Shown here piece after piece: positions 3,298 to 60,398 of a stretch of 64,000 nucleotides of DNA. The first letter of the stretch is position 1. Every line of letters starts with the position of its first letter. The DNA lies in NCBI GenBank assembly GCA_050084515.1, contig CM114271.1, forward strand, positions 5,456,001 to 5,520,000, written 5' to 3'. The position numbers and the translations under genes are program-made. This DNA comes from Blasia pusilla (taxonomy: Eukaryota). The notes beneath the pieces were generated by a model. That model made no database searches, was not told the origin of the DNA, and saw nothing but the letters and a program-made list of their open reading frames with translations.

Positions 3298-4305
3298 TGT
3301 CGCGCCCCTACTCTCCTTGAACGTCAATCTTTAGTGTTGCGGAAGCGTACGTTCAGTAGGTCACGATCTCATCGCTGATCTGCACTCAAACACGCACTCT
3401 CGTTAGTCGGGTCTGGGCCAACCAGCGTTCCAACCCACCGAGTTCTCAACTCGACGTCTCATCAAGCTCAACCTTCCTTAGTTCCTAGTTTCCAAAACAC
3501 GGCAAGTCCTTCAAGACTTGGAACAGACTTCCTGGTTAGTCCAGGGATCTGAAACGGCACTTGCGTGCCTAGCGATCCCAATTGTTCAACGGACCTCGTG
3601 TGAGTTCCAAACCGAGACCCAAGTAATTGAGTCCCGGGGTGAAATCCAAGAGGGATGTCTAAAATCGCCTCAATAGACTTGGTGCAGGTTTTCCAACCCA
3701 ACTCCCAAACTTGCGTTCCGTTGCATGCCCTTGAGCCGCCCAGCGGCGCCCAAAGTGGGGTTCGGGTTCCAAGCACTCTCGAAGGCCTTCCCCCTTACTA
3801 GTACTTCTGGGGTTCTCCAATAACCCCCCCCCCCCCTTTGGGAAAGGAGGGTCGGGCCCTTCATTGTGGCCCTCAACCCGACTCTACTTACAGTCGTTTC
3901 CGGGTTGTTTCTCAGCCGTTGCTAAAGCGTTTGCAGAGATCCTTAGTGCGTTTGAACCGGCTTTCCATAAGCTTTGTAACGCATCCTTATTTAATCCAAA
4001 CTCATCTTGGCGCTAAAAGTTATGGCCATAAATACAGTCGGAAACTCTCAAACGCTAGTGGCGTTCCAAATCCGGATTCTTCCTTTTGGCAACCCACTTT
4101 CTAGACTCGACTTCTTTCAAGTCTCAATCCGCGTTTGGTCCAGGTTTCTCGGTCGTGACCACAACATCTGAAACACGACGCCTCGCTCGCGTCTCGTCTC
4201 TTGTCTCCTCTTTGAGACTACTCCAACGCGCAAACCATCTTAGCGTGAGCCCGCTAATGTTCCGATGTTCCGCTTGGCACTCGTTTGGTCATGAGGGTCG
4301 CGACA
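3298..4305 (-). repeat. 3' LTR (~1.0 kb) of the chromovirus element
   Basis: Inverted termini TGTCGCG/CGCGACA; homologous along its whole length to 31483-32479. Confidence 0.92.
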
Positions 4306-7900: not shown

Positions 7901-8875
7901 CGTATTCTGCTTGAAGCCTCCTCCACTTGTCTCATCAAGCAGAGGAATCCATCCTCCAACTCGGTCATGCTCCTCCTTGTAATTGAGTTCACTAACTCCT
8001 TTTTCGCCGGAACCTCACGGACCAACCGCACCTGTAACCGTTTGCCCTTTAGCAAGACGCTCAACCTCAAGGGTCTACGTCTTAACTCCACCTCATACGC
8101 ATCTAGGAATGTATTCCCCAAGACTCCGTCAATGCCATCCATTTCACACACAGTGAAATTCTCCTTCAACTCGAATACCCCGCATCCTACTGTCAAACCC
8201 AAGACCAAATCAGAAGTCCGATGAGACTTGCCTCTGCAAATCCTACTCGAATGGGCTCATCCGCCTTAGAGGTAGACAACCCCAGTTCCTTCACGATTCT
8301 CGGGCTTAGGAAGAAGTGCGAAGCACCTATATCCACGAGCAACAACACATCGCGATCAGCAATCTTGGATCTTAGGTACACCAAATTGTGCGTCCTCTTG
8401 GTGACCTGAAGGGACGTCTCGAGATCGCCCGCCAACAGATGCTTAGCAGCAAACGCAATCATACTCCCATTACTAACCTTCGAATTCGAACACACTTTCG
8501 CCAGGTGGCCCGGTTCGCCACAGTTGTAGCATACAACCTTGCCGTTCCCTGACTTCAAATGCTGTCCTCCTTTCGGCTTCGCATGAAGTTCCACTCGTTT
8601 TCTTTGTTGCAGGCGACGACCCTGGATCGTCCGCCCCCACCTCGCACTCTTTTGAACACCTCCTTATATTTCGACTTCTTCAAAAAACCTTTTGGCTTGA
8701 AGGGTTTCTGGGTTTGGACCTCATCGTCCCCAATCCGCTCCGCCAGCTTCAGAAGATCTGCGCAGGTATCTGGCAACGTCGGCATTTGGTAAAGGGCCTT
8801 TTCAGCGCTCGGCTTGAGTCCACTAATGAAGATAGCCTTCTTCGCGTGCTCATCCATCTTTGGAATAGAAGTCAC
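4994..8875 (-). pseudogene. gag-pol (zinc knuckle, aspartic protease, RT, RNase H, integrase, chromodomain), disrupted
   Basis: CYNCGEPGHLAKVC knuckle; LLVDIGASH protease; RLCVDYRALN and YIDD (RT); HTDASD (RNase H); VSMDFI/SDRD/TDGQTE and KYVGPY (integrase); FEVETIL...YEYLVKWKGY...ATW (chromodomain). In-frame TGA at 6919 and 5717 plus frameshifts. Confidence 0.95.
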
Positions 8876-9003: not shown

Positions 9004-9310
9004 CTAAACCCCAATTACCCACCATTGTGAAACCATATGATTCTAGGTTTAGTAGCGCCTATGCATCACTCAATTACCCACCATTGTGAAACCATATGAT
9101 TCTAGGTTTAGTAGCGCCTATGCATCACTCACACTGAACCCTAATCACCCACCATCATGAAACCATATGATTCTAGGTTTAGTCGCGCCCATTCATCACT
9201 TCCACTTAACCCTAATCACCCACCATCATGAAACCATATGATTATAGGTTTAGTAGCGCCTATGCGTCACTTACACTAAACCCTAATCACCCACCACCAT
9301 GAGACCATGA
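9004..9310. repeat. Tandem minisatellite, ~71-bp unit, ~4.4 copies
   Basis: Unit AAT(T/C)ACCCACCAT..TGAAACCATATGATTCTAGGTTTAGT... starts at ~9013, 9072, 9143, 9214 and 9285; the first unit is 59 bp. Confidence 0.9.
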
Positions 9311-12853: not shown

Positions 12854-13372
12854 CATCACGGGTGTAATACAAGCCCGTGATTCCCTACTATAGGTTCCTC
12901 CAACATTACCTTACTAGTACATGACAAGAATAAGCACAAGGATGGGGTTTAATTTATTCTAGCATCACGGGTGTAATACAAGCCCGTGATTCGTTTTCAA
13001 TTAAGGGTCCCTACTATAAGGCTCCTCAAAATTACCTTACTATTAGACGACAAGAAAAAGCACAAGGAGGGGGGGTTTAAGAGAAGGGCTAAACCTATTC
13101 TAACATGCATCACGGGTGTAATACAAGCCCGTGATTCATTTTCAATTAAGGGTCCCTACTATAAGGTTCCTCAAAAATTACCTTACTATTACACGACAAG
13201 AAAAAGCACAAGGAGGGGGGGTTTAAGAGAAGGGCTAATATTCTAACATGCATAACAGGTGTAATACAAGCTCGTGATTCATTTTCAATTAAGGGTCGCT
13301 ACTATAGGGTTCCTCAAAATTACCTTACTATTACACGACAAGAAAAAGCGCAAGGAGGGGTTTAAGAGAAGG
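12854..13372. repeat. Tandem repeat, ~144-bp unit, 4 copies, each with a hairpin
   Basis: CATCACGGGTGTAATACAAGCCCGTGATTC starts at 12854, 12963, 13108 and 13251 (last copy degenerate). The first unit is shorter (109 bp). Confidence 0.9.
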
Positions 13373-29375: not shown

Positions 29376-30190
29376 TACTCCCCCTCAAGCTCATATCGAT
29401 ATCTCTAACGCCTAAATCATTTCTAAACATCTCAAACTTATCTCTAGACAATGCCTTTGTAAAGATGTCAGAAATTTACTGATATGTGTCTATATACACA
29501 AGATCAATTTCTCCTGCAAGCACTTTCTCTATGATAAAATCATAGGGCACCTCAACATGTTTTGTACAAGCATGAAACACAAGGTTATTAGCAAGCTTGA
29601 TGCTACTAATATTGTCTGCATATATTACACCAGGTCCTAATTTACTAACACAAATCTCAACAAGTAATCGATGAAGCCACACCGCCTCACATGCTGGATT
29701 GGTTGCTCCTCTGTATTCAACATGTGTTGAAGATAAAGCAACTGTAGGTTGCTTCTTTGAAGCCCAACTTATAGTTGCGTTTCCCAAAGTAAATGAATAA
29801 CCAGATATGGAGTGCCGATCAGACATGCTTCTTGCCCAATTAGCATCTATGAATCCCTGTAATTGAAAACTCGGAGAAGGTTGAAATTGAAGCCCGAATT
29901 GAATAGAGAATTTCACATACCACATAATCCTCCTCACAACATCAAGGTGAGGTTTTTGAGGTGCTTGCATAAATTGGCTCACTAGGCCAACACCATAACT
30001 CAAATCTGGTATGGTTATAGTTAGATAGATTAAACTTCCAACCATATGCCTGTACATATTAGAATCTGTAAGCAACTCTCCTTCATCCACTCTTAGCTTC
30101 ACACTCTGGTCCAACGGTGTGGAGATTGGCTTACAAGTTATCATACCATATTTTGAAAGCATATGAAGAGCATATTGTCGTTGTAGTAAC
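29376..30190 (-). mobile_element. Ty1/copia fragment: end of RT, RNase H and PPT
   Basis: YRHMVGSLIYLTITIPDLSYGVGLVSQFMQAP, SWASKKQPTVALSST, HACTKHVEV, SDIFTKAL (~29450-29475); PPT TTGAGGGGGAG at ~29378-29388. Confidence 0.92.
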
Positions 30191-32570
30191 TTGACAATTG
30201 CCCTAAATCGGAATACATTGAGGTATGGGACTATTCAAGGAGTTGGTTATCGACCTACTATCCGGAGGTTTCATCAAGGAGATTATGTCTACTTGCAGCA
30301 CGACCTTGGATGTGATTGCATGACACACCATCTTGAGAGTGCGTGAGATTTTGCCATCCGATGTTCTCTTATTGGAGGGACGTGATGGTATGGTTTGGAA
30401 AGACCATGTGCGTAACTGTGCGCCATGTCATCTTCCAAACATTCACGATACAGTTGATCCGAGCTTAGCAGTAGTTCCTACAGGCTTGAGATGTATGTTG
30501 TGTGGTTTTGCCTGTGGTGCATCCACTATTTTAGTCTATGATGGATGTTCGAGAGGATGGCATATAGCATGTGTCATGCCACCTCTCACTAGGGTTCCTA
30601 AGGGAAGATGGATGTGTCCTAGATGTACATAGCGTAGGTATTTCTACGTTCCGACTTGTATCTATGATATGGATGACAATAAGGCGACTAACGATGGGGC
30701 CACATGAGCACCCGACTTTCTTGCTCTTAGCGTCTGAGAGATGTATGTCATGGTAGATAGGGATAGATGACTATCTGGAGTTAGAAGGACCTAACCACCA
30801 ACTAGGGGGGCGATTGGTGATATTTTGATACTTCTTGTCCCGTTGTTTGGATGCCATAAGTAAGCATGGGATCGTGTGTGTTTGTTTGTGTGTTCGGTAA
30901 CACCGATGTATGTTGTGTAGCATTGTGTATGCATACGACACCTGTCACCTCTTTTAGGATAGATTGGTGAGATCTAGTAGAGCGCCTTTGTGAGTAGTGG
31001 AGGACATGCTCAATAGGTCGAGGATGACGTGTTGAGGCCTCGGGAAACCTGAGAGAGCATGTTTCCCCTTCGTTTCGGCTCATTTGGAGCCATATTGAGG
31101 AATTTACTATTTTAGGTAAGTACCATTTTGAATATATGATATAATTTCTATTGTTGGTAAGTGGCCCTTGACCTCCTACATCAGGTCAAGAGCCAAGGAG
31201 GTGACCTGGGAGCATAAGTTACCATGGAGAGAGCTTTGGAGAGGGGAGGGGTATACCTCAAGGAGAGAGAGCTTGAGAGCTCATTCTCTTTTTGTTGAAC
31301 CTCTTGGCATGAGGCGGCGGAGCTATGGTCGTGCTTGCCTTGTGTGTGTAACCCAAGCCTCTCATTAGGAGAGTGGGTTTGGTTTGACATTGAGAGAGAT
31401 ATGTGAGAGTGCAAATATTTGAGATCTATGGGGTTGAGAGAGATTGGATCTTATTTTATTGGAGATATTTTGGTACTTCTTGTATCGCGCTCCTACTCTC
31501 CTTGAACGTCAATCTTTAATGTTGCGGAAGTGTGCGTTCAGTAGGTCACGAATTCATCGCCGATCTGCACCCAAACACGCACTCTCGTTAGTCGGGTTTG
31601 GCCAACCGGCGTTCCAACCCACCGAGTCCTCAACTCGGCGTCTCATCAAGCTCAACCTTCCTTAGTTCCTAGCTCCCAACACATGGCAAGTCCTTCAAGA
31701 CTTGGAACAGACTTCCTGGTTAGTCGAGGGATCTGAAACGGCACGCCTAGCGATCCCAACTGTTCAACGGTCTTCGTGTGAGTTCCGAACCGAGACCCAA
31801 GTAATTGAGTCGCGGCGTGAAATCCAAGAGGGATGTCTAAAATCGCCTCAATGGACTTGGTGCAGGTTTTCCAACCCAACGCCCAAACTCGCGTTCCGTT
31901 CCATGCCCTTGAGCCGCCCCGCGGCGCCCAAAGTGGGGTTTGGGTTCCAAACACTCTTGGAGACCTTCCCCCTTACTAGTACTTCTGGGGTTCTCCAATA
32001 ACCCCTCCCCTTTGGGAAAAGAGGGTCGGGCCCTTCATTGTGGCCCTCAACCCGACTTCACTTACAGTCGTTTTCGGGTTGTATCTCGGCCGCTGCTTAT
32101 GCGTTTGCAGCGATCTTTGGTGCGTTTTGACCGGCTCTCCATAATCTTTCCAACGCACTCTTATTTGCTCCAAACGCATCTTGTCGCTAAAAGTTATGGC
32201 CATAAATACAGTCGGAAACTCTCAAACGCTAGTTGCGTTTCCAAATCCGGATCTTCCCTTTGGCAACCCACTTCCTAGACTCGACTTCTTTCAATTCTCA
32301 TTCCGCGTTTGGTCCAGGTTTCTCAGTCGCGACCATAACACCTGAAACGCGACTCATTGCTCGCGACTCGTCTCTTGTCTCCTCTTTGAGACAACTCCAA
32401 CGCGCAAACCATCTTAGCGTGAGCCCGCTAATGTTCGGATGTTCCGCTTGGCACTTGTTTGGTCATGAGGGTCGCGACATCTTGTCTCGTTGTTTGGATG
32501 CCATGAGTTAGCATGAGATTGTGCGTGTTTGTGTGTGTGTTCGATGACAGCGATGTGTATGCGCACGACA
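30191..32570 (+). mobile_element. 3' fragment of a PHD-finger Ty3/gypsy element (integrase C-terminus, PHD, PPT, LTR)
   Basis: Colinear with ORF 34045-34839: TLRYG..GYRP, LLLEGRDGMVWKDHVRNCAPCHLPN, PHD CMLCG...DGCSRGWHIAC...WMCPRC*. PPT TAGGGGGGCGA at ~30803. LTR 30943-32570 (TGTC...GACA) is interrupted by a solo LTR. Confidence 0.88.
31483..32479 (-). mobile_element. Solo LTR of the chromovirus family found at 3298-8876
   Basis: Homologous to 3298-4305; termini TATCGCG (from TGTCGCG)...CGCGACA; perfect 5-bp TSD TCTTG at 31478-31482 and 32480-32484. Confidence 0.93.
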
Positions 32571-32639: not shown

Positions 32640-33219
32640 TTGTGTACAGGAGCATATTTACCTAAGTGTCCACTCTATTGTGGATGAGGGGATGAGTCAT
32701 ATCTATCCAACTGAATTTTTGAACACATGCTTGCCTTTTGAAATTTCTCCTCATCGTTTGTGTTTGAAGATTGGTGCACCAATCATGCTCTTACGAAACA
32801 AGAATGGATCCCATGGACAAGCAAACAAGATAAGATTGGCAATTCATGCATTCATGGATCCATGCAACATTGCATAGATGTTGAAATTATCACAGGGAAG
32901 AATATTGGAGATCGAGTCTTTATTCCACGTACACCATTGATTGCATTGGATTATGGTTTTCCATTTGATTTGTGTACGTTTCAATTCCCTATTCGTCCAA
33001 CTTTTGCTATGACTATTAATAAGTCTCAAGGTCAAACGTTGCAAAAGGTTGGAATTTACCTGCCTACTCATGTATTTTCTCATGGTCAATTGTATGTAGC
33101 ATTATCTAGAGTAGGGAAGAGAAGTTCCATCCACATTACCATTGGAAGTGATGAACATTCAAATAAGGAAGGTGACTGACTACACACGAAATGTAGTGTA
33201 TAAAGAGATACTCGGATGA
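32640..33219 (+). pseudogene. PIF1-family helicase C-terminal fragment (Helitron-derived)
   Basis: YPTEFLN...PHRLCLKIGAPIMLLRN, FPIRPTFAMTINKSQGQTL, VFSHGQLYVALSRV and terminal TRNVVYKEIL: intronless Helitron RepHel helicase motifs, with stops. Confidence 0.88.
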
Positions 33220-33262
33220 AATAAATTTTTGATTTGCAAACACTTCTCTATTTGACATGTGT

Positions 33263-33736
33263 TGTCATGCGAATCCATATCGTCATACAATATACATTGC
33301 TGACATACCATACTCACCTACATGCATAACATAGACGAGAGCATCCACAAACACAAGTGTACCACAACTGAAATCCGTGAAAGACCTACTGTCATAAAAC
33401 ACGTATAGAATCACACACAATCGAGCCAAACCCACTCCATGATGGGAGAATCCAAGTCGAAGCTTGTGGGAACCACCATAGCCAAGAGCTCTACTCACTA
33501 CCAAGGCTAACTCCCAACGCAACAGGCTCAACTCAAAGAACTAACTTTTCTTTGAGTGCACTCCACACTATATCCTCCAACCTAAGAGCAGGCCCTACTG
33601 GAAAAGTCACCCTCAACGGAGTAACCCCCAACCCTATGTATGAAACCGCATCTCTACCTAGACATTACGACCCTACATAAGGTACGACCTCTACTAGCAC
33701 ACTATACTCTACGACATAATCCGTATGGTCATGACA
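33263..33736 (-). repeat. 3' LTR (474 bp) of the DNMT-PHD gypsy element
   Basis: Perfect 7-bp inverted termini TGTCATG...CATGACA. Its last 107 bp (33263-33369) are duplicated at 33739-33845, next to the PPT. Confidence 0.75.
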
Positions 33737-34017
33737 GTTGTCGTGCGAATCCACATCGTCATACAATATTCATCGTTGACATACCATACTCACCTACATG
33801 CATAACATAGACGAGAGCATCCACAAACACAAGTGTACCACAACTCGCCCCCCTAAGTGGCGGTTAGGTCCCTCTAACTCCCAAGTAGCCCTATACATCT
33901 ACTACATGCTATACACCTTCATGGGTGCACGAATCAGAAGCCCGTGTGTTAGGTTGCCCCATCGTTAGTCGTACATCTGTAATCCATATCATGCAAAGAT
34001 CAAGTCATCTACCTCTC

Positions 34018-34170
34018 CTAAGTACATTGAGGACAAACCCACATTCAAGTAGGAACAACATCCATACGTGGAGTCAAACACATCATGTGCCAACCCCTAG
34101 AACACCGATCACACACCAACATACGGGTTGCGTTACCAGCAGACCCACACAACATGCACCTCAAGCTAGC
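34018..34170 (-). pseudogene. PHD finger (C4HC3) at the C-terminus of integrase
   Basis: CMLCGSAGNATRMLVCDRCSRGWHMMCLTPRMDVVPT*MWVCPQCT*; one premature TGA interrupts an otherwise complete PHD. Confidence 0.9.
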
Positions 34171-37138
34171 ACGTATCGTGGCTAAGCTTGGGTCAACACT
34201 TCCATCCACATTTGGAAGATGACATGGCGCACAATTACGCACATGGTCCTTCCAAACAACTCCATCACGACCCTCCAACATGAGAACTCCAGAAGCTAAC
34301 ACCTCACGCACTCGTAAAATAGTGCGGCTTGCCGTCACATCCAACGTTGTCGGTGCAATCTGCTGCAAATAGACATAGTCCCCCACATGGAGCCTATGAA
34401 TGGATGGTCGATAACCTCCACCCCAAATGGTTGCATACCGCAACGTATCCCTGTGTTGAGCAATGGCAAGATTCTCAAAGGCTGTTGGCATAACTCTCCG
34501 AAAGAGCTCTGCCCACTGAGAACACACTCTCATCCACATCTCTGGGTTGTCAAGGTTCACCACCTCACTAGACTCCCCACGAATTGCTGCTGGCACGTCT
34601 GGATCTCGGCCGTGTAACAGAAAATAAGGTGAGAAGAAAGCCAAGGATGCTTGGCGACTGAACCTATACCCCATGGCTAACCATGGCAACTGAATATCCC
34701 AGTCTCCAAGATGCCCCTTCTGTTGGCCATACTTGCGCAATGCCCTCTTCACCGTCTGAACCACACGCTCAGCCAAACCATCCGCCTCTGGATGATCTCG
34801 AGACGTGGTCCGATGATCAATCAACGCCTTGTCACACAAGACTTGAAACTCACCCTGAAACTATGTACCCTGGTCGGTCAACACCTCAATTGGTGCACCA
34901 AAATGACTAAGCACTCTATCAAGAAACGCATACGCCGTTCCCTCACTTGCATTGTCAGGTAATGACACAAACTCAATCCACTTGGAGAAGTGCTCCACCA
35001 TCACCAACACATATCGATGATGTTGTGCAGTCAACGGTAACGGTCCCGCAAAGTCCACACTCCAACGGTAACTCAATCCCATAATAGGAAAGGGGTGTAA
35101 TTGTGGTGTATGGGCATTGAATGATGCCCTCACCCGATCATAAACCATACAACGTGACACCAACAACTGCACCTGGGTATGCATGCCATGCCACCAATAC
35201 TTGCCAAGGAGTAAGCTATACGTACCCTTTACCCCAAAATATCCCAACTCCTTATGGGCATGTCGCACAATGCGCTCTCTCTAAGCCAAATACGGCACTA
35301 CTCGTACTCTACCATCCTCCCACACACGGAGAATATATGTTCCCTCCAATCAATACCTCTTAGCACGTTGAAGAACACGGTCTCGCTCCTTGGCACTCAC
35401 TATGCTTGGCACCCTACTGGTCCGTAGGAACTCCAACACCAACGCATCATCATGAATATCACGCTGATGCGTACCACCATCTCCAACCTTAGGATCTGAA
35501 GGCTGGCCATCTAACCTCTGACTATAGTAAGATGTCATGTGGTCCTCCATACTAGAGTCCACCCCTAACCAACATAAAAAGGCAGATGCATGCCAACCTG
35601 GGACCATCTCCTCATCAACCTCACCACGCCATCGAGCCTTAGTTGCATCCTCTTGGCTAGTATATGGGTTCCTACTCAACCCATGAGCATCAAGGTTGGC
35701 AACTCCAGGTCTATGTACCACCTGGAAGTCATACTCCTATAAGATAAGAGCCCACCATACAAGCTTCCCTGCAAGCTTGTCAGACTCCATCAACCACTTG
35801 AGCGGTTGGTGATCAGTAACAAGGGTAAACTATGTGCCAAACAAGTAACACCTAAAGTGTGCCACAACCCACACTACTGCTAAGCACTCTCCCTCATATG
35901 AACTATAGCGCGACTCCGTTGCATTATTCGAACGACTTGCATAGGCCACCACAAACTCCATGTGCTCATCATCATGTTGTGTCAACACCGCTCCAAGTCC
36001 CAACCTACTCCAATAAGTGTGTAACTGAAATGGGCGCCCTCTGATAGGTCTCCTCAAGATAGGCGCCGTCACCAATTGGGCCTTGAGCTCCACAAAAGCT
36101 CTCTCCTGATAACCTCCCCAATGCCACTCATGATCTGATTTCAGAAATTGCTTCAAAGGCTTTGCCATAGCACTAAATCCCTTCACATACCTCCGATAGT
36201 AGTTCGCCAATCCCATGAATGCCCGAACTCTACTCACATCTACCAGACGAGGAATAAGTGCAATAGCCTCCACCTTTGCTTGCTGAACTCCCAAACCACC
36301 TGGATAGATCACATGACCCAAGTACTCAACATCCTCATGGAAGAACTTACACTTTCCTGGATGCAAACGTAGACCATGAGCTTTCAACCGCTCAAACACA
36401 ATCTGCAAATGTATCTGATGCTCCTCCACTGTGTTACTGAACACCAAGATATCATCAATGTAACACTGAACAAAATCCAACCCTGCTAGGATCCTGTCCA
36501 TCACTTCTCTGAAACTCGGCAGTTGCATTCTTCAACCCAAAGAGTAAAATTTTCCACTGGTACAAACAATCCTTGCCATGAGAGTTGACACCCCAAAATG
36601 CTGTCTTGGCCTTGTCACTCTCCCGAATCGGCAACTGATGGTATCCTGCCGGAAGATCCAAAGTACTGAAAATCTTTGTCTGTCCCACCACATCAAAGAT
36701 CTCCTCATGTGTAGGCATGGCATACCTATCAGTCTTGGTCTGCCGATTGATAGGACGATAATCTCCACACATCCGCCCATCCGTGTAGTTGCCATGCACA
36801 TCCTTTTTAGCAAGCATGACAGTGGCTGATGCATACTCTCCATGCGACAACTCCACTAATCTAGCCTCCAAAAGGTCCAACGTCCCACTCTGAATCAGGT
36901 TCCTCTCCATATCACCATATCGGTAGGGACGACAAAAGATTGGCATATCACTAGCCAAATCAATCCGTATACCGGGTCCAACCAAAGCACCCAACTCCTT
37001 CATGCTAAAGGCAAAACAACTCCTATAAGCACGTAGGCACTGTGTCAAGCGTCGTTTCTCACCTCCCGTAAGCTTGGGCCCAAGTAATGGCTCCCAAGTC
37101 TCCTCCACTGGCACACTAGAGGGAGAGGATGACACCAT
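34171..37138 (-). pseudogene. RT, RNase H and integrase of the DNMT-PHD gypsy element
   Basis: ORFs 36455-37138, 35830-36528, 35350-35721, 34861-35268 and 34045-34839 carry gypsy RT/RH/IN motifs, separated by stops and frameshifts. Confidence 0.93.
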
Positions 37139-37389
37139 TGGCTGCTACGCAACCCCCTCACAAGATGGTACACCCTTAGCTACTTCATCATCTGACCAAA
37201 TAACTCCTCCACAAGCATGAGCAACCAACTCCACATGCCCAGCCATAACATCCCATTTACTCCAAGGATGCAAAATACTACTCTCCTCAAAAAATGCCTC
37301 TACCTTCCCGGTAGCCATCGAGCTCATCACAAGGGGTGAAAGACCCACAGACATAGTCCGAAGTCGACGTTGCTCGGCCATACCAAGAC

Positions 37390-38335
37390 TCAAAATCCAG
37401 GTCAAACAATTCAAGTCCATGGCCTGACCCAAGACATGACGTCGTGAACCCTAAAAAATGGAAGCAACCATTGTCACACCAGTAGCAAATCCCATCGCTC
37501 GCTCTCTCATCAGCGTTAGGCTCCACCAACTGTCGCACATAAAAATCCCATACAATCCCAGGACCACCTTCCCTGTAGGCATGTGACGAGGGAAAACTCA
37601 CAAATATGGGTAGTGCCATCCTAGGCTGGCCCACACGGTTCACCACTGCCATGGGTGATCGATCAATAACCCTCACTACCTAAGAAAGTCGCCCAATATC
37701 CAAGATACTATCCATTGTAAGGCAAGGATCCCGGTGCACTGCATCATATGCTCGACGTAGAACCTCCCTAGGCAACAAGTTTGTCCACCACAAGCGTGGC
37801 CGATGTGCACGCGAGCCAACTTGCGTTGCATCCAACAACACCGCTGGTCCAATCCAAGACCGCACCTCATGCACACTCGCATCATCCGGGTCCGAGTGTC
37901 ACCCAACAATGGAACATTCTCCAGAATGTAAGTTGGAGCATGTGCCTGATGAACCTGAAGATGTCGTAATACCCATAACATTTCCCCAAACAATCGAGAC
38001 CTAGGGTCGTGTAATCCCTCACCACGACCAACACGTGTATGACCCTGACATGGCCATCCAGCAATCACCAAATCCACAGGACCAACCCTCTCAAGGTCCT
38101 GCGCTCCCAACAATGTAGTGTGTGACGACAAAGCACGGTGGCACCCACGAATAGCTGATGGCGGAAACAACTCAGGAAATCTCGCATCAACTGACCAATA
38201 TGTCGGGATGAGACTCTCTTGGTCGTCTCATCTTACTCCACATACACGTATCTCCGTACAAGAATACCGGCTTGCAACACTACAACCAAACCAGTGCTAA
38301 TCCTACCAAAGAGATCTAACACACAAATGCCCTCC
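37390..38335 (-). pseudogene. C5 cytosine DNA methyltransferase domain (DNMT3-like), embedded in retrotransposon pol
   Basis: Motif I CVLDLFGRISTG (VLDLF at 38308-38322); IV DLVIAGWPCQG; VI YILENV; VIII LLDATQVGSRAHRPRLWWTNL; IX EPNADER..RAMGFATG; X RRHVLGQAMDLN. Canonical I-X order, no introns, several frameshifts and stops. Confidence 0.92.
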
Positions 38336-38343
38336 AGAGGATA

Positions 38344-41029
38344 CTACCATACAATGGGTGTAGTATCCAAAGGGGATAACCCAACTGGACTAGAAGTAGG
38401 AGTCCGCCGTGGGGCCTCCTCTTCCTCATGAGGTATAACAACCTCACACCAAGCCTCATGCACTAGGCGATCAGCCTCCTCCCGTGGTGCACCGCCTGAA
38501 CTCCAAAGTGGCACATCTAACGATGAGGATACCACTGCTGCAAAACTAGGGACCTCCTCTACCTCTTCATGCACAGGAGAATCCATAACAGAAAGGTTAC
38601 CCTCCAAAAAGTCTCCTGGCCAAGTGACTACTCCATAGAAACCAGCCACCGATGCTAACACTGTTGGGGAAGACCCTCCTGGTCGAGCCCCATAAATAAA
38701 TCTCACAGGAACATGGCTCATACGTCCATCCCCGGACTGCCAACCATGTCTATAAGACGTTGTCTCATTCCAGTAGTCCATCTGAAAATCCATCGGGTAC
38801 AATATTGCTCCTCCAACTAGTACATCATACGACTCGGCTGATGTGACCATTGCAGGTACTCCCAACCTCGAGCTATCAGTTGCATGATCTGGTCTCAACT
38901 GTACAGACAACTTCTCCCGAGTCATGAAATGAGACCTATCATTGGTTCCTCCAAGTGATGTCTGAATCTGGAATGGGCAAGGCTCAAGCTCTGACCTCCG
39001 AATACCCAAACCAATACATGCCGCCTTTCCCAACATCAAAGGTTGGGCACCAGAGTCTAACAAGACTCTATCTGGTCTATACACCTATCATGTAAGACTC
39101 ACCAATCGGAATATCCCACTCTGGTTGTCCAACATACATACACCAGGTGTAAGCCTCTCACGATCAATGGCTGGCCGGGCTGGTAATGGATCCATCTTCG
39201 CCGCTGCTGCCTGCCAAGTAGCACGGATACTCAATGCTACACATGACATAGGGGGTCACTCCACTCCAACATCCTCATCACGTGTAGCCGTAACACTCCC
39301 GCGTTCACACAACGTGGCTGCAAGCTGAAATACAGGAGTGAAGTCAACTCCTAAAGCCATCAACTCCGTGGCTGAAAACAATGGGGATGCCAACACTGAA
39401 GTTGCCATCCGCAATACTGCACTGGATGCTGCATCCGTATCTACCACACGCGATGTAGATGCCTCAGTCCCCACTGTAGGCTCCATAGGTTGCATAGGAA
39501 CCATGGATGGAGTCCTAAGCACCTCAGACAACAAGAATGACTGGGGAAGCCTAGCCTACCTCCCAGCCTCACTCCTCTGTGGGTCCAACTCCACAGTAGC
39601 ACCACGTGGCTCTGACGCTCGAGTGGCTGCTCTTATAACTGCAGCTGATGCCTCAACCTGTGCTGCACTTGGCATATAAGAGAGATCATCCCCTCCATAA
39701 GAGGTGGAAGCCCCTGCTCCCGAACCTGCTCTATGCTGGGTATCAGCCATAGTACCCAACCTCTGCTCCAACTGCTCAATCTTGGCAGCCATAGCTGACT
39801 CTGTTGTAGTGGTAGGGGTAGCCACCGTAGGCTCTCCAACCACTGGTCCACCTCTACCACCTCGGCCTCTCAGAGCTACTCCACCACGTTCGCGGCCTGA
39901 TCTCAACTCTAGATGAAGATCAAAGCAACGCTCTGGAGGATGACTTGGTCTCCCGCAATGATCACACTGAGTTGGGGCCGACTGAGGCCCATCCTCCAAA
40001 GTCCGTCTCCCATCCTCTTGGGGACAAAACCTCCTAACATGATCACCTCCACATGTCCAACATGACTGTCCTTGCTACGGGGCAGAAAATGAAGGCAATG
40101 GTCTCTGCGCAAGTGTCCCTCTAGGACCTAACTGAGGTTGGGTGTACCCCCCACAACTCCCACTACTACTACCACCACCACTACTACGAGATTGTGAGGT
40201 GAACTGCTGAACACGAGAAGTAGTAGTTGTATCCCTATTGAATGCGGATGTCACCACTCTCTCCTCCAACATGTTAAGCTCAATCTTCTCAGATAGAGCA
40301 AACACCTAGATCAATGTGGGTGAATCATCACTCATAAGAGTAGCATCACGTACCCTGCGGCGCAACTCTCTGTCCAAGATCCCATACCAAAACGGATGCT
40401 CGAGCCTCGGTCCACACCTGGGTAATCTGAAATCAAGCGTTGCATACGAGTGTATGCCTCACGAAGACTCTCACCAGTCTTTCGCTCAAATTCCTGAAGA
40501 CTCCTCAACTTCTCTGTCTTCACTCCCTGATAGTTCTTCTTCAACCTCTTGAAGAACTCTGCAATCGGGCTGAATGATGGTGGGGCACTAGTACCTCCAC
40601 TAGTATCCCCACTGGTACCCCCACTCCGGCTCGTACTCGTACCACTCAACGTCGGGTTGGCTATCATAGTAGGAGCACTACTACCAATACCACCATGGGT
40701 GATAGACACATATCACACCACAACATCTGCATATCACACCACGTATCAAACTCCTCAATGAAGTCCTCCAACTCAATGGTGCCCACTGCACTTGAGTATC
40801 GTCGTAGGCCCTTCATGGCCCCATATATCCCATCCAAGTCCGAAATCAATGGAGCTGCAACATTCGATAACAACGTAGAAGACTCACTGTTTGGAACACC
40901 CTCGTCCTCCTCTTCATCAACCGTCAAAAGTGGAAAAGATAGCCGATACCTCAATCCACTCCGTGTAAAACTACCACTGTCCGCACCACGGTCCCCAACC
41001 AGACCACCAGACAGCTCCGTGATGACCAA
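38344..41029 (-). pseudogene. gag and aspartic protease of the DNMT-PHD gypsy element
   Basis: LEDFIEEFDTWCD, LQEFERKTGESLREAYTR (gag-like), two CCHC-type knuckles, and VLLDSGAQP...YDVLVGG (protease). Confidence 0.85.
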
Positions 41030-42239
41030 CGCCGATGCCGCACCACCACCAAATCACCACCACTAAGTAACCAAGTGACGTCGATGTCGCTGTACTATTC
41101 TAGCTCTACTAGCTATGGGTGTAGGAAAACTAACCTGTCATCACCACAAGAAGCCTCCCACGGTCTACTGGTCACCACTCCAGCCTCACTACCGGTAGCA
41201 CACAAGAGTGAAACTACTCTGGAAATCAGCGTCAACCCTAACAATGGGCGCGCAAGCAAGAAGCAACGATGGAGGGGATCCAAACACAAGAAGTTAAACG
41301 ACAACCCTCTAATCGCAAATGCAAATCAAGGTCATACAATCCACCAAACGTGGCACCCCCTGAATCCACATAATCCACCACACAATTCTAACACAATAGC
41401 TACTCCGCTGATAGTCAATGACGTGCTAGTCGCACTCGTAGCACCTGAAAATATCACCTGCATGGAGAGGCTACACCGTACTATACGCTAGAGGTCCATC
41501 AACCAAAAACCCGAGATGCATAAAGCGCCTAACACATCTCTGGACAGCACCAAATGAGGTACACCAGTGTGTACACTGGCATAGTTAAGAACTCTGCAGT
41601 TAAGCGTTTTCCAGGCAGAATAGCCCAAAGAAGGGCGACCAATTATGCAACACTCAACTCACAAATCCTGCAAAAACTGCCTCACGCCCAAGCAAGCAAG
41701 CTTGCTTGCTTGCTCCTTGCTCCTTGCTCCTTACTCCGGCTCTCACGCCCCGAGCTACCAGGAGTTGCCTCGAAACGCCAAGAAATGCTCGAGACATACC
41801 CTATTCGCCACGCTTTGCCATGCTTCGCTATGGAGAGAGGCCCAACCAAGGCGCCCCCAATGGGATAGGCGTCTCCAACAACGGACGAATCACCAACCTA
41901 CCAGCCCCTCCGATCTGCTGTCCACCATAGCCAGTCCTTGAGCTAGTTTGCAAAATTTTGATTAGCAATTACTCCACAAATCCTCGACCAAAATTGAATC
42001 TGTTTCGACCAGAATTCAATTGGCCACCATAGCTATCTCTCCACAAAAAATTAGTTACAACCAAGCTCTACACTGTGAGCTAAAAATCAGACAAACTTAT
42101 TGTCCATACACCTCAAGAATCGCAAATCCGACAGCGCTTCCGCCCAGATTCATACACACAGAAATCCGTAACGCTCCATACACTCAAACAGATAGCTTCA
42201 CATGAGAGCACAATACAGAGAGCAATAGGAACCTCTCAC

Positions 42240-42400
42240 CCTTCCATTTATATATATATATCACTAATACATTCGAAAATACATGGCACTGGCGTTAGTG
42301 GAACAAAGCCACATGACGTGGACCCCCGAGTGTCCACCAAATGACACGTGCCAAGCTCAGTACTCGGAGGACCTGTGGTGGGACCCATTATCCAGTTCCT
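42240..42400. promoter_or_regulatory. Candidate shared/divergent promoter between the DNMT-gypsy element and the ABC1 kinase gene
   Basis: (TA)n-TAAAT TATA-like run facing left (42244-42261); ACGTG cores (TGACGTGG, GACACGTG); GTGGGACCC TCP-like site; pyrimidine-rich putative 5'UTR of the kinase starting ~42400. Confidence 0.4.
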
Positions 42401-44042
42401 TGACTCTTTTCGGTCCCAATCGTCTTCCGGAACCTTACGACCTTTCTCCCCTTCGCCCGCGCTCTCGTGGAAATGTTACCGATTGACGTTAAACGTTAGT
42501 AATTCCGTGTGAATTACACCTTCGCCATCGAAAGATCCTACAGTTTTCCTGCGTTGCGGAAACTCCGCATTGATTTCAGAGCTTGTCGGAGCAAAGCATA
42601 TGCTGGATCGGATTCTCTCCTCGAATTGTCCGCCGTGCGTCGCAAGCTTGCGGAGGAGTTTGCGAGATATGTTTTTCTCCGTGGATTCTTTCGGAGGTTT
42701 TTTGCCCTTCCAGATCCGGTTCATACGATCTTTGCTGATCCCGTGAATTTTTGTGCCGCGTTTTCTTTCGTGAAGGCGCCCTCGGGTCTTGATTGGCGGC
42801 TCGTTTCTCGCGCGCCTCAGGTGTGTGGCGTGTTCGTTGTAGTCATTTTTGCTACTGTCTGTAGTCTGAAGCGCATACCGTTTTTAGCGATGGGTTCAAT
42901 TTTTGGAATTTCGGATTTTTCATGATGCCGAACCGCGTGTGATTGCTTCCTTTGTAGAGTGATTCCACATTTATGATACACTTAATTTTCTGCGCTTGCT
43001 TTCATCCCAAGTTGAAGTATCCCGCGGCTCTCTTTCTCTATGTCCTTCGCATGCTCCCGTGTCTTTCCTTTCATTATGCTGTCTCAATGCTTGTGCTCGC
43101 AATTTATGTCGGACATTCCTGAAACCTGAGTTGTGATGTCTTCTTTTTCCGTGGAAGTCCATTTGTAAATTTGCGATCTTTCTTTCAGCCTGGCATTCAA
43201 TTTCTGAGGAGCACAGAGTAACAAAGACCTTATTTTTTTTCGCTGAAGCTCAGAGCCAAAAAACCTGATAAGAATTTCCAGGGTAATCTCATCTCTTGTA
43301 CCCTATAGTCTTCGAGTTTTTGTGGATGGACGCCTGGAGGAATTGAATGGTAGCCATGTACATTTAGTGATTGAAGTGTATGTAGTAAAAGCTATAGCAC
43401 TCGATCTTTTGTCTTGCAACGTGCGCCTTCGCAGTGGTGCGTTGAAGTGAGATTTTCATTGAAGAAGTTGCCATCTATATCATTTTTTGGGAGCAATTCT
43501 GGAACAAAAGGGTGGGTATGGCATTCAAAGATAACGCTGCTACCACTAGAAGAGCCTTATGGCGCTCCCTATCCGCCTGGCATGACCGCCATAATGAATG
43601 TGAATGCTCGATTACAACTACCGTCTGGATGAGGAGTGTTCGTTAGTGGATTCAGGTACCGCTAGTCAACGGAATTTTCATTCGACTGCCCTGATCTCCT
43701 TAGCACCCTAGAAACGACGAAGTAAATCTGATACAACGGTCTTAAGATAAATTTGGTTATGCTCTAGTGTGAGTGACAGTGGATATGCCCAAGATAAACT
43801 GGCTTCTAAAATTTGGCGCTTAAGAAAATTACGAACACGGGTTGATTTTTCAGGTGTTTGAATGAGAGGGGATGTTTGACGAGAATTTGTCACCTTACGA
43901 TTCCGTCCGATCTAAATCTCATGTAGGCTCCTCGTTTTTTATTTAGAGCACCACCAATTGCTCGGCCGATTGCTATGTGTCGATTAGAGAAAAGAGATTG
44001 ATGAGTTAACTTCGTGTGCAGGTATTTCAAAACATATTAGGT

Positions 44043-49334: not shown

Positions 49335-50347
49335 GAGACATCAATAGCGAACATGGAGACGACTTTTCGACCCTAAGAAGAGGAGAGACTTGGCTTGTGA
49401 TTTATTTCAGTGGGACGGTTTTGTGATGAACCAATGAATCGTCCCAAATGTCACGTCTCGTGCCGTGAACATTTCAAAATATCTGAGTGTAACAACGCGC
49501 AGCACGTCATTGAATGGGCAATGCTAATTTTGATAACCATAACCATGGCTTCTATAGAGCGAGACACCTGATGTAGTTTGGGATGTCTGACCGAATAAAT
49601 CATTGCCGGAGTGATCTGCCCCGCCTTCGCATGTATTCAGGCCAGGGTCCGCAGAGTTTTTTCGTGACAACCGGTACATTTCCGGTCTCTACAAAACCGA
49701 GCGGCAATTTTTGAAGATTTCAGTCCGGCCGGCTAAACAGATACGCATACAAAGGACACCCTCCCTGAACCTTCGGTTTTTGGCCGGTATGTGACAAACT
49801 GAATCGGAAATTCTCAAATTCTTCCGGCCAGCTCAACACGTAACCCCGGTTCTCCCCGAACATTGATTCAGGCTCGTTCGCAGTTTCCGTTCTCATCGAC
49901 TACATCAGAGAATCCGGAGATTCGGATTTTAACACATAGGGATACATCAATGCAAGATAAAAAGAGGTCATGTTTTTCGAGCATCTATCCCATTTGGGAC
50001 TTGGCGACCGTAAGGCACAGGAAATCTATCTCCTCACCTGCAAGTATGATGGTCTTTCATGCAAAACAATCCACTTGAAGGCAAAATGCACCACCCATGT
50101 TCATCATCCATCACAGATGTCCACTACCTATCTCTCCAAACCTTCTCCAAAAGATCCTCAAAAAATATGCATGACGGAGAACCCATAAACAAAAGAGGGG
50201 ACTCAAAGAGTGTCTAAATGCCACATGCGATCTTGAAAAAGAAAGAGGCATTTGCCCTTTCGATTAAACTCACCAATAGTTGAAACAATATCTGCAATTT
50301 CTAATACTAATGAGTTTCTAGCGTCGGTGTCTCCCATAGCCAAAAGC

Positions 50348-50548
50348 CCATTGGCGTGGGCATGTTTTAAAGATAAGGAGACCCGTTTCATGTAATAAAA
50401 GATCGTGGTAGCCAAGACAACTCCTTTCTCGATTGGAGATGACTAACCGCAAAAACCAATTGGTGTGGGCACGTTTTAAAGAGAAGGAGACCTATTTCAT
50501 GTAATAAAATATCGCGGTAGCCTAGACAACCCGTTTCTCGATTGGAAA
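50348..50548. repeat. Diverged direct repeat, two copies of ~90 bp with period ~109 bp
   Basis: ATTGG(C/T)GTGGGCA..TTTTAAAGA.AAGGAGACC..TTTCATGTAATAAAA...TTTCTCGATTGGA at ~50350 and ~50459. Confidence 0.75.
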
Positions 50549-51377
50549 CCCATAACCTGAGTCCGCAAGAAACGAATCAAACCTCTCCCCCTAATCCCAT
50601 ATATCTCTATGACTAAAGAGAACATAACGAATTCTGCTACGGATGCGACCATGCCACGTGTCTCAATCGTAGAATTTGAATGCCGGACACGAGAAGCTTC
50701 GAAACTCCGTGCCGGCGTCCTCCACTAAGAGTCTTCAAGTTTCCCGGCCAGGTCTCGGGCCTGGGCCGCCTGGCTCCCCGGGGGCCGGAGTTATCCCGGC
50801 GCCTCCGTGCACGTTGCGTTTCCCAAGTTCCCACAACCAGGAATCCAGGACTTAAAACTCGCCGCCAGATTGCGCACGTGGCATTATGTCAGAATTTCAA
50901 GGGGTTGCAGCGGGGAAACATGTCAGGACTCCCGGGGATTACTCCTGACTCCTGAGTCGCGCGAGTACTGAGGCTAAAGGGAGTGTCTAGGCTAGATTCT
51001 GGATTCTTGGAAGAAAGAACGTAGACCTCATGTTCACATCTTACCCTTGCTCTACGTCTTCCACCCGTTTGCAATGTTGCCCGCTGGCGGCGCCAAGCGG
51101 GCAACAATGTACGATGCTTTTTTCCTCGTTTCCAACCACGTAGGTGTATGTACTACGTGGTGATGCTGTACGGGGCCGCGAGACCTTCATACCGTGTAAT
51201 TCTGATCGAGGAGTGTCTTTCTACACGGATTCTCTTTTGTTATTGTATCTGTGTCTATCGACTATTGTTTCGCACCGAGGTGAGATTACTGCACTGTTTG
51301 AGATAGTCGGATTTGGAAAGCAGGAAGGCCGATGTCAGATGGTATCCGTCCTGTCTCCATGAACGCTTCATGCGGTG

Positions 51378-53865
51378 CTACTCTGGTGTTTGTATGTCGA
51401 ATGCGTTTCTCTCTTCTTTCTGTACTTGAGCGGGTTGGAGAGCCTCGTGTACAATGTGTGCCATTCTTACTGTTATCTGCATCCGATGTGTGCCATTCTT
51501 ACTGTTTGGTATCTTCACCGGAGGCTTTCTACCGGTCCACATCTGCCGGTCGCAGTGTTCGTCCAAGGCAATCGGATCGCCTTTGAATGGATCTTCTGCG
51601 GAAGTTTGGAGAGTACCATTATTCTTGTCTATGGAAATATCTGTCGGAACACAAGTCCTAGGCCCGCTGGTGAAGTCGCGGAGTGTCCAGTGTCCACGTC
51701 TTTGAAGGTTGGAAAAGACACCGGGGTGATCATCTTCTTCGTCCGACACTCACAGCCTTTGCGTTGTCGTTGCAGTCACAATGCAGTGCTGGCAGGCATT
51801 CAGGAATCTGGGATCTTCCCAGAAAGAGGAAACCGGTACAGTAGTCTCTCCAATCTGGCCAGACATTTGCTTCAAGACGACATTTCACATAATCGCACGG
51901 ATTCGCACCTTCAGCTACAGAGACCTAAAAGTTCTCCGCTTCTCTTTTGGACTGTAGCGCTGGCGGATTTTGAACATCCCTGTTACTTCATTCATCGGCG
52001 TGCACATGCAACTCCTCCCCGACCCCGAGTATTGCTTCCATAAGCACAGCATTCGTGAATCGTAATATCGTATTAGCCTGTGGAATCGCAGGCTCATCCT
52101 GTGTCAGGAACAGTTTGACTACTTTTTGTGCTTACCTGAGCCTTGCCCTCCATGAATCACTTCACCCGTCTCCTCGAACTCTGGTAATTCTCCTTCTTCA
52201 ATGATGGATGGCTCATGTCCCTTTTCGAGGCTACTTTCCTTCGCAATCGCATAGGACAGTAGGACAGACATGGACTCAACTTGGTAAAGATAATGCAGTA
52301 AACATCGAACGTCGTTCAACCTAACCTGAATTTTTTCTTCAATGATGGATGGCTCATATCCCTTTTCAAGGCTACTTTCCTTTGCAATCGCATAGGACAG
52401 TAGGACAGGCATGGACTCAACTTGGTAAAGATAATGCGGTAAACATCGAACGTCGTTCAACCTAACCTGAATTTTCTGTTGTGGTCAGTCCTCATCAGTT
52501 CCAATCGTCGTAAGCAGCAAATTGTGGATGGATGTGGTTTTGCAGAATCAGGATAAGGCGCTGTCGTCCACACAAGTACCGATTCTTCAAATTTTCAGGC
52601 TTAACCATCATAAAGCAATTAAAGGCAAAGCCAAGGGTCAGTGTCTCGGTGCTGCAGCTCTATATCTGTAGCATGGCTGTGCGTGCGCCAAGGGGTCGAG
52701 ATAATTATCAAGCGATAATATTCGAGGACCGATAAGAGAACCCGAAGCGAAAGGTATTTTGGTCTAGAGTATGTGTATCCCAAGTCGGGTGAATATCTTA
52801 TGCGTATGGACACTGTTTGCTTCGGACACTGAAAGGTACCAGAGACTGCGAGTTACAAACTCCAGCGCCAATTACTCCACCTGCTACGAATGCATGCTCG
52901 CATCGCACATCTGCTGCGATCGGGCTTCTGACGAGATATTTCTTTCGAAAATCACTCTTACCGAAGTCGAGACTTTGTAGAATGAAAGATCCGTGATACT
53001 GGATTTGGTTTCCACGTGACGACATGTTTAGTTTCATGCCCTAGACGGTCCTTCTGCATGGGCCATACGAAGAAATTGGCTGCTTCCACCGAAATTGCCC
53101 CCGACTGTTATCATTTGCTGCTTCCAAGCAGCATTGTCGGACACCAGCCATACCCTGCATTTGCACCCCAGGTTAATCGATTCGGATGATCGCACACACA
53201 GAACACGTTTACTGTGTCAACGAATACTATCACCAGGTGCGTCTTCCCAGCGCCTACAGTTGATGAGAGAATGCTTACGATCTGTCGAGGGTCGCTTTCC
53301 AGCAGTCCGTGACGACACTGCCAGACGACTCTGATCTAGAGAGTCGTAGAGACAAACCGACTCGATGGATTGATTCCCCCCGCTCCCCACCGTTCATCCA
53401 CATGAGCTGCGGCTTCAGCGTACATGTACACCTGCGAACGAATTTCAACGCAAGAAGATTGCAGCTCCGATTTGTGCAGGCTGTGCTGACGATCCCGTAC
53501 TGTCTGTCACTTGCTGAGGAAAAGCGGCTGCGATAGCTGCTCCAGGAGAGCGAGCTGACTTCGGTTTCGTCTCCGATCTCATCGCCACCACCGCCATCAT
53601 CATCATAATCCTCATCGTAAGTACGTAGACCTATCCTGCACTCCTCCCTCCTCCCGAGTCCCGGCCCGGTTTCTCGTGTAGCACCACCCAGAACTTCCTC
53701 CCTTCTTCCCGGCGTAGGGTTTGCTATCCCTTTCCACAAAGCTTCACCGATCACCCGGCGCGAGAACCAGCCGGTCGGACCTTGAGAGGCTACGAAAGGC
53801 CAATGGTGTACGTCGGGGGACAAAGCCGAGCATCCCGGTCTCGTAGTGACGCATGACGGTGACAA
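51378..53865 (-). other. Possible multi-exon gene of unknown function
   Basis: GC-rich non-TE sequence. ORF 53275-53865 has an acidic/Gly/Ser tract and a donor-like CAG|GTGTAC at ~53431. An exon-like segment at ~52137-52475 is bounded by AG and CAG|GTAAGC. No recognisable domain. Confidence 0.3.
52194..52475. repeat. 141-bp tandem duplication (2 copies)
   Basis: TTCTTCAATGATGGATGGCTC...CTAACCTGAATTTT starts at 52194 and 52335; encodes a 47-aa repeat in ORF 52119-52460. Confidence 0.92.
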
Positions 53866-54799: not shown

Positions 54800-60257
<5,458 letters not shown>

Positions 60258-60398
60258 CTCAACCTTCAATTACCTCAATTGATATAATCATTTTTTTCTA
60301 TCAACTTTCCACTCTATGGATTAGCATACTTGGGAGAGTTGATAATTTCTCATGGTTTGTCTTATACTATTTGATGCTCTCATCACTATGGAGTTTGA

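Follow-up and report, generated by a model that had tools for sequence, protein, structure and literature searches.

How can a retrotransposon be copied and inserted if its polypurine tract (PPT) is followed not by the start of its long terminal repeat (LTR) but by a copy of the end of that LTR? This question is raised by a decayed Ty3/gypsy retrotransposon on the minus strand of a 64,000-nt stretch of Blasia pusilla DNA (GenBank assembly GCA_050084515.1, contig CM114271.1, positions 5,456,001 to 5,520,000 of the forward strand). We refer to this whole stretch as the window and number all positions from its first base. The retrotransposon, here called element 1, occupies 33263–42350 (3′ end exact, 5′ end approximate) and carries remains of gag, a cytosine-5 DNA methyltransferase (DNMT), reverse transcriptase (RT), RNase H, integrase and a PHD finger. 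We compared it with a second copy in the window, with related contigs from a public genome collection and with published elements. The comparison makes it very probable that element 1 has a split-repeat architecture and that this architecture is conserved throughout its family. On these sequences, we read the normal termini of the group as A1-PBS-genes-PPT-B1-NN-A2-B2, where A and B are the two parts of the repeat, NN is a two-nucleotide spacer and PBS is the primer-binding site.

The 3′ cassette of element 1

On the minus strand, the cassette begins with a G-run primer tract of the PPT type, TTAGGGGGGCGA (33856–33845), the final A of which doubles as base 1 of repeat B. The tract lies inside a 46-nt block (33881–33836) that is 85 % identical to 30777–30822 in the second copy (element 2, described below), compared with 69 % for the adjoining coding sequence. 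The internal copy of the terminal repeat, B1 (33845–33739, 107 nt), ends in ...CGCACGACA. The dinucleotide AC (33738–33737) separates its final CA from the TG of segment A2 (33736–33370, 367 bp), which starts TGTCATG. A2 runs into the terminal copy, B2 (33369–33263, 107 nt), whose CATGACA is the 3′ end of element 1. Together, A2 and B2 form a 474-bp unit (33736–33263) with a TGTCATG start and a CATGACA end. The preliminary description of this locus had reported a PPT followed by a 107-bp segment in place of the LTR start, and then AC and a 474-bp TG...CA unit repeating the segment at its end. This description holds to the base.

In our own alignment, B1 and B2 matched at 102 of 107 positions. 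A repeat finder paired 33261–33369 with 33737–33845 (109 nt, 95 % identity, spacing 476); it returned 109 rather than 107 nt because AC also happens to follow B2. The repeat reached a blastn E value of 1e-45 within the window, and 95 % identity over 107 nt excludes chance.

The G-run and the TG stood 109 nt apart in element 1 and 130 nt apart in element 2, so that neither shows the canonical adjacency of PPT and LTR (0–2 nt). Nor are the genes enclosed by two identical LTRs, as no copy of A or B stands 5′ of them in the window. With blastn at word size 7, no second copy of the 367-bp A was detected anywhere in the 64 kb, and Smith-Waterman alignment of the cassette with 41000–42700 gave a score of 24 (shuffled sequences: mean 23.4, maximum 30). 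This copy may be truncated, or rearranged by recombination, on its 5′ side. As a control, a canonical element in the same window (54802–60272, minus strand) has a pair of LTRs that are ~85–92 % identical, a gap of 2 nt between its PPT and the 3′ LTR, and a tRNA-type PBS, TGGTATCAGATC, 1 nt after the 5′ LTR.

Relatives with the same layout

Element 2 (30188–32570, plus strand) is a 5′-truncated relative comprising the end of an integrase, a PHD finger and a 3′ cassette. The two elements are arranged tail to tail, ~700 bp from each other, and are 68.6 % identical over 646 nt (blastn), with tblastx matches in agreement. Its PPT-type tract, CTAGGGGGGCG (30802–30812), is followed by a B1 of 128 nt (30813–30940), which ends ...ACGACA. 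Then come CC and segment A (30943–31457), which starts TGTCACC. B2 (31458–32570, consisting of 31458–31483 and 32486–32570) ends CACGACA and is split by a nested insertion. It matched B1 at 95 of 111 aligned bases, in addition to a 17-nt deletion in B2; the boundaries used for this alignment were 2 nt off, which makes the identity slightly too low.

A scan of a public prokaryote genome collection gave eight contigs encoding relatives (L001–L008). L005 and L006 end soon after the PHD finger, and L007 and L008, with weak integrase-only matches, were left out. In L002, a G-run is followed by B1 (2311–2416), GC, A (2419–2778) and B2 (2779–2884), beyond which the flank is unrelated. Its two B copies are identical (106/106). 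The dinucleotide after B2 is AG, unlike the spacer GC, and the element therefore ends at the CA of B2; the AC after B2 of element 1 is best read as a coincidence. L001 is a 9285-bp contig with a nearly intact set of gag, protease, DNMT (PF00145, 6.8e-12), RT, RNase H, integrase and PHD finger. Given that its ends overlap by 127 nt, it would be either a collapsed LTR assembly or circular DNA. Here a G-run is followed by B (6949–7054), the only copy in the 9.2-kb unit, then by GC and by A (7057–7395). A runs into non-B sequence, and gag follows 1.2 kb further on. The leader between A and gag (7396–8180) is ~780 bp long, AT-rich and ends in a run of ~28 A. In L003 and L004, the integrases of which are 43–45 % identical, a G-run and 54–55 nt precede ACGTGACA-GC-TGTCACG, which forms a palindrome of 16–18 bp centred on CA-GC-TG; both contigs end before a possible second B.

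These copies share several regularities. In every one, A starts TGTCA or TGT- and B ends -ACA, which gives inverted repeats of 4–8 nt standing 2 nt apart. The spacer is AC in element 1, CC in element 2 and GC in L001–L004. In nine of the ten families or copies with both B copies known, including those from Chlamydomonas, the start of B is 0–4 nt downstream of the G-run; the exception is Gypsy-2, with 21 nt between B and the nearest G-run upstream. Within a copy, B1 and B2 matched at 102/107, 106/106 and 95/111 (plus the 17-nt deletion), compared with 50–62 % between families or unrelated copies. Since the identity within copies is so much higher than between them, B2 is renewed from B1 whenever the element transposes, in the manner of LTRs.

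Published counterparts were found in version 3.4 of the repeat library for Chlamydomonas (Supplemental Dataset 15), in which we compared the sequences of 12 internal-part 3′ ends by eye. Nine of the 12 (Gypsy-2a, 2b, 3, 6, 7a, 7b, 8a, 8b and 9a) consist of a G-run, a copy of the last 6–50 nt of the LTR, and GC. Gypsy-5a_cRei would be a tenth fit if its entry is written in reverse orientation, and Gypsy-1 and Gypsy-4 are canonical. A mirror-image form for Gypsy-5a_cRei, with the spacer and a copy of the LTR start on the 5′ side, was considered and dropped, as a C-run follows the copy and the entry is probably reversed. The legend to Fig. 6 of Craig et al. (2022, Plant Cell 35:644; PMC9940879) states that the left LTR of Gypsy-7a_cRei is without its last 8 bp. 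In the library, the missing 8 bp recur exactly as the 8 nt that separate the G-run from the GC closing the internal part, and the internal part opens with a TGG-type primer site. Craig et al. describe 86 new insertions of this element in a laboratory strain as one structure (PMC9940879), and the layout is therefore functional.

Compared by eye, element 1 and Gypsy-7a_cRei share the order of G-run, LTR-end copy, 2-nt spacer and TG-starting LTR ending CA, and both have an integrase plus a PHD finger. However, the legend places the PHD finger of Gypsy-7a_cRei before the integrase, whereas that of the window element follows it. B is only 6–8 nt long in Gypsy-2, 7, 8 and 9 and 48–50 nt in Gypsy-3, 5a and 6, compared with 107–128 nt in the window copies. 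The GC spacer of the Chlamydomonas entries creates a CAGCTG palindrome, while the window copies have AC or CC.

A second counterpart is KnitGypsy-Dnmt3 of Klebsormidium nitens, for which the legend to Fig. 4c of de Mendoza et al. (2018, Nat Commun 9:1341; PMC5890265) gives a DIRS-like repeat structure. The legend to Fig. 1 of that paper renders the DIRS arrangement as A-coding region-B-A-B, and its peer-review file describes two A repeats that flank the open reading frames (ORFs) and two B repeats that flank A2. KnitGypsy-Dnmt3 and element 1 both have the gypsy domain set with a cytosine methyltransferase within pol. A K. nitens integrase (KFL_001420210) is 52 % identical to the window integrase, which does not imply a link to KnitGypsy-Dnmt3 itself. 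The two elements differ in that a 5′ A is reported for KnitGypsy-Dnmt3, whereas element 1 shows B-A-B at its 3′ end only, without A1. The methyltransferase of the window element may or may not be of the Dnmt3 class: DNMT2 and DNMT3B scored alike in a PDB search (E=0.0021 and E=0.0038, respectively).

On the 5′ side, L001, the text on KnitGypsy-Dnmt3 and the legend on Gypsy-7a_cRei agree that the repeat of these relatives is A without B. The non-canonical layout asserted in the preliminary description has thus stood up and is common to element 2, L001–L004 and the Chlamydomonas library entries. Relatives in which the PPT lies next to the LTR had been named as the contrary outcome; the relatives were found to have the unusual layout too. 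Beyond the two figure legends, no description or explanation of the layout was found in a literature search that covered few subscription journals and did not include the thesis cited by Craig et al.; publications on Chlamyvir, REM1 and plant epigenetic networks had no bearing on it. Element 1 is a further member of the kind sighted in these legends, with a longer B and a non-palindromic spacer.

A proposed scheme for the copying and integration of a split-repeat element

We hypothesized that the edges of the repeat correspond to the sites at which DNA synthesis is primed. The start of B is likely to be the PPT priming site and the end of A the PBS. The first base of B would then be where the plus strand is started and the last base of A where the minus strand is, and these two priming points would therefore make B-NN-A the unit duplicated by RT. 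The resulting linear complementary DNA (cDNA) would read [B-NN-A]-PBS-genes-PPT-[B-NN-A]. Its blunt ends, however, would not be integrase ends, since CA is not suitably placed; the two attachment ends of integrase would instead lie back to back at CA-NN-TG within the B-NN-A unit. Split direct repeats with an integrase site inside the RT-copied unit are, overall, the explanation that we find best, and we give it an even chance of being correct.

How integrase ends could be obtained from such a cDNA is more tentative. In a route that we consider possible, at somewhat less than even chances, the A end of the cDNA would be joined to the start of B through ligation or through a template jump from end to end, forming the equivalent of a two-LTR-circle junction. 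Integrase would cut at the CA-NN-TG beside the PBS-side unit, and the product, TG-A...B-NN-A-B-CA, would then be inserted. The integrated copy would be a circular permutation of the cDNA in which the left-terminal B has been shifted to the right end. The joint of A2 and B2 would be the counterpart of the retroviral two-LTR circle junction, and B1-NN-A2 would be a contiguous template with the integrase site. The enzyme content speaks for the explanation as a whole: element 1 encodes a DDE integrase, and neither 13 minus-strand ORFs nor the 3 ORFs of L001 gave a match to a tyrosine recombinase (PF00589-type).

Two claims of the preliminary description need correction in this light. It had likened B1-NN-A2 to the joint of a two-LTR circle; judged by the primer sites, the counterpart, in which the base preceding the PBS is linked to the base following the PPT, is the joint of A2 and B2. 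It had also placed both integrase ends in the 3′ cassette, which is right in that the CA ending B and the TG opening A stand back to back, 2 nt apart. Since relatives have a 5′ repeat (A1), the element does not depend solely on this cassette.

Internal cleavage of such a junction has been reported for retroviruses: the integrases of foamy virus (Delelis et al. 2005; PMC1180852) and HIV-1 (Delelis et al. 2007; PMC1905944) cut a palindromic LTR-LTR junction internally. This is the same DDE reaction at a CA...TG inverted repeat as joining and cutting would require, and it gives integration-ready ends. The retroviral junction, however, arises only after circularization and serves a side route, whereas the junction considered here is genome-encoded within the RT-copied unit, has a spacer of 2 nt and would leave no other route.

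Could the whole 583-bp B-NN-A-B block be one ordinary LTR, present at both ends of an element that uses canonical priming and integrates as linear cDNA? B1 does follow the PPT immediately, which is where a canonical LTR would stand; the block ends in CA, and a TG is found close to its start (element 1, AGT-TG; element 2, AT-TG). Nor does the 5′ side of element 1 allow a direct exclusion. However, A of L001 leads into non-B sequence and then gag, with B single-copy in the 9.2-kb unit, and two papers give, in their legends and accompanying text, a 5′ repeat without B. A block at both ends, which the preliminary description had named as an outcome contrary to its own reading, was thus not found. 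In addition, the conserved inverted termini (TGTCA.../...GACA) are located at the start of A and the end of B, not at the start of B, which varies (AGTTG, ATTGG, CTTGA) and has no common TG position. We therefore regard a single ordinary LTR as improbable. A route without end-joining is also unlikely, though a shade more credible: B2 would be templated from parental RNA that runs through A2-B2, the minus strand would be begun at or beyond the 3′ end of the RNA, and integrase would trim B-NN from the left end. As A and B are contiguous only in the parental 3′ cassette, templating would explain the exact joint. The CA in which B ends is a common cleavage dinucleotide for polyadenylation, B is GT-rich, and the single product fits the one structure given for the new Gypsy-7a_cRei insertions. 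On the other hand, TGG-type primer sites stand directly after the 5′ A in the Gypsy-7a/8_cRei entries, and in Gypsy-9a_cRei such a site lies 1 nt into the internal part, which argues for tRNA priming there. There is no evident primer for a start at the 3′ end, the trimming by integrase would amount to 10 to ~130 nt on the left, and it would be left unexplained why, in both copies, B has its left edge at the PPT.

The two other explanations have less in their favour. Element 1 is old and broken and has no recognizable 5′ repeat, as might be expected if its cassette were a one-off, be it the product of aberrant strand transfer, a partial tandem LTR formed by unequal recombination, or an assembly artefact. 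However, the same layout and boundaries occur in element 2 (69 %), in L001–L004 and in most Chlamydomonas Gypsy entries seen, and the B identity within copies is far above that between copies, which leaves a one-off with a next to negligible chance. Insertion by a recombinase in place of DDE integration, with circular cDNA formed via the split repeats as in DIRS, PAT or Ngaro elements, would account for the repeat order. PAT, Toc, Kangaroo and Ngaro elements have split direct repeats in the order A1-genes-B1-A2-B2 (PMC4157794), of which the window copies supply B1-A2-B2, and de Mendoza et al. made the same comparison for their element (PMC5890265). PAT, Toc, Kangaroo and Ngaro, however, have a tyrosine recombinase and no DDE integrase. 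Element 1 and L001 both have the zinc-binding and rve domains of an integrase, and no tyrosine recombinase domain was found in them. Their RT and RNase H are of the Ty3/gypsy type, and their TG...CA termini with inverted repeats look like integrase substrates. We consider insertion by a recombinase highly improbable.

Several points nevertheless weigh against our preferred explanation of split direct repeats and against the joining of cDNA ends in particular. Neither A1 nor B was found 5′ of the element 1 genes by blastn or by Smith-Waterman alignment with shuffles, so that the complete order A1...B1-A2-B2 is taken over from relatives and from the literature. No target-site duplication was found for element 1, and no PBS either, with no initiator-tRNA-type site in 41000–42400. 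The circular L001 contig could be an assembly collapse, and the A-run in its leader suggests that this leader may hold a nested poly(A) retroposon. In L002, the stretch of A that is common with L001 is separated from B2 by 20 nt that start TGG (2759–2778) and match nothing in L001 (0 matches with ≤3 mismatches), so that A may not have the same end on both sides in this family. The Chlamydomonas likeness is one seen by eye, with the sign of a shared clade limited to the PHD finger that the legend gives for Gypsy-7a_cRei. A tandem of B-NN-A units would contain two identical CA-NN-TG sites, so that the route would need a directionality that it leaves unexplained; no copy of the alternative-cut product, A-B-NN-A-PBS-genes-PPT-B, was seen among the elements compared. 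Finally, retroviral circles are not regarded as the normal precursor of integration.

The 20 nt of L002 may be what is left of a primer site at the joint, or may simply reflect divergence of the family. A copy of the PBS between A2 and B2 was considered and dropped, because the TGG stretch of L002 is unmatched in L001 and Gypsy-7a_cRei has none. At the 5′ side of element 1, the excess of G over C and of T over A that characterizes its minus strand stops at ~42300–42400; TGTCATTTGG stands near 42350, at this boundary, and gag homology to L001 begins at 40583. The word formed by CA and the 3′ flank occurs six times beyond 39 kb, which is chance level. A candidate target-site duplication at 41565, inside element 1 and adjoining TGGTGTACC, was not significant. 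An initiator-tRNA motif matched only the control element and, with 2 mismatches, one site on the other strand; no tRNA genes were found in the 64-kb window. We gave no weight to ACGGATTTC at ~42165, which equals the last bases of A, or to TGTCAT at 42352, on the composition boundary, as ~3 chance 9-mer matches are expected. On the minus strand, 41920–42360 holds GGCTATGGTGG, which also occurs within A2, two more ATGGTGG(A/C)CA motifs, a TATATATATATAAATGG stretch and the ACGGATTTC just mentioned, none of them significant alone.

Coding content, neighbouring features and significance

The coding frames of element 1 are interrupted by stops and frameshifts (minus-strand ORFs; domains at 34.0–40.7 kb), and to judge by them it is a dead Ty3/gypsy retrotransposon. 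A gag fragment (40332–40712) matched PF03732 at 5.2e-04, which is below the curated cut-off, and is homologous to gag of L001. The DNMT domain lies upstream of RT (37503–38227; PF00145, 2.4e-06 for 37676–38227) and aligns to the DNMT of relatives. RT and RNase H follow (35830–37144; PF00078, PF17919 and PF17917). The integrase, with its zinc-binding domain and rve core, and the C-terminal PHD finger span two stop-to-stop frames (34045–35280; PF17921 3.3e-11, PF00665 2e-10 and PF00628 9.7e-07). Element 1 and L001 both show the Ty3/gypsy pol order of RT, RNase H and DDE integrase. The PHD finger (34045–34150, minus strand; 30480–30630, plus strand, in element 2) occupies the C-terminal position that the chromodomain has in the integrase of chromoviruses, and may guide target choice.

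With the integrase-PHD frame as query, 220 proteins scored E<=0.001 among 1946 candidates. The best named match was Mp_7g09570 of Marchantia polymorpha (83 % identity), which marks the source genome as Marchantia-like. Remoter relatives came from Calypogeia, Klebsormidium, Haematococcus, Pleodorina, Tetrabaena and Chromochloris, several of them also with PF00145. Element 1 belongs to a group of Ty3/gypsy elements of green plants and green algae that combine a cytosine methyltransferase with an integrase ending in a PHD finger. The domain order is DNMT-RT-RH-IN-PHD (RH, RNase H; IN, integrase) in element 1 and one relative (P0016), compared with RT-RH-DNMT-IN-PHD in four algal relatives. Because of this difference, the DNMT domain must have either moved or been gained twice within the group.

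The insertion in B2 of element 2 is 997 bp long (31484–32480) and flanked by CTTGT. It is 88–94 % identical to 3286–4127, which adjoins a chromodomain-bearing gypsy element (4994–8663, minus strand). The insertion probably represents a solo or partial LTR from the chromodomain gypsy family, although its ends are not obvious TG...CA termini. In the 690-bp gap between elements 1 and 2 lies a helicase fragment (32742–33179, plus strand) with a weak match to PF02689, which by eye is Pif1/Helitron-like. Both elements may have inserted into older Helitron-like sequence. Elsewhere in the window, tandem arrays occupy 9013–9308, 12882–13363, 50341–50557 and 52194–52475, with periods of ~71, 143, 109 and 141 bp, respectively.

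The layout has practical consequences. Programs that find LTR elements expect equal LTRs touching PPT and PBS, and elements of the form A...B-NN-A-B are consequently given wrong boundaries or missed. As these elements carry a DNA methyltransferase together with a chromatin-reading PHD finger, they matter for studies of plant and algal epigenomes. The layout also separates the unit that RT duplicates from the unit that integrase recognizes, two definitions of the LTR that coincide in every textbook element.

If joining and cutting of cDNA ends takes place as proposed, these elements would offer a natural setting with an integrase at work on an internal junction, and the active member in a laboratory strain of Chlamydomonas (Gypsy-7a_cRei in CC-4532) makes the idea directly testable. 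A broader claim is that the whole Ty3/gypsy clade, from chlorophyte algae to liverworts, integrates via a joined-ends intermediate, either circle-type or tandem, in which the DDE integrase opens CA-NN-TG. At present we regard this as doubtful. If it were true, the scheme of the circle as precursor, once proposed for retroviruses and then abandoned, would become obligatory in this clade. It would also explain why elements with a DDE integrase have converged on the split repeats of tyrosine-recombinase retrotransposons.

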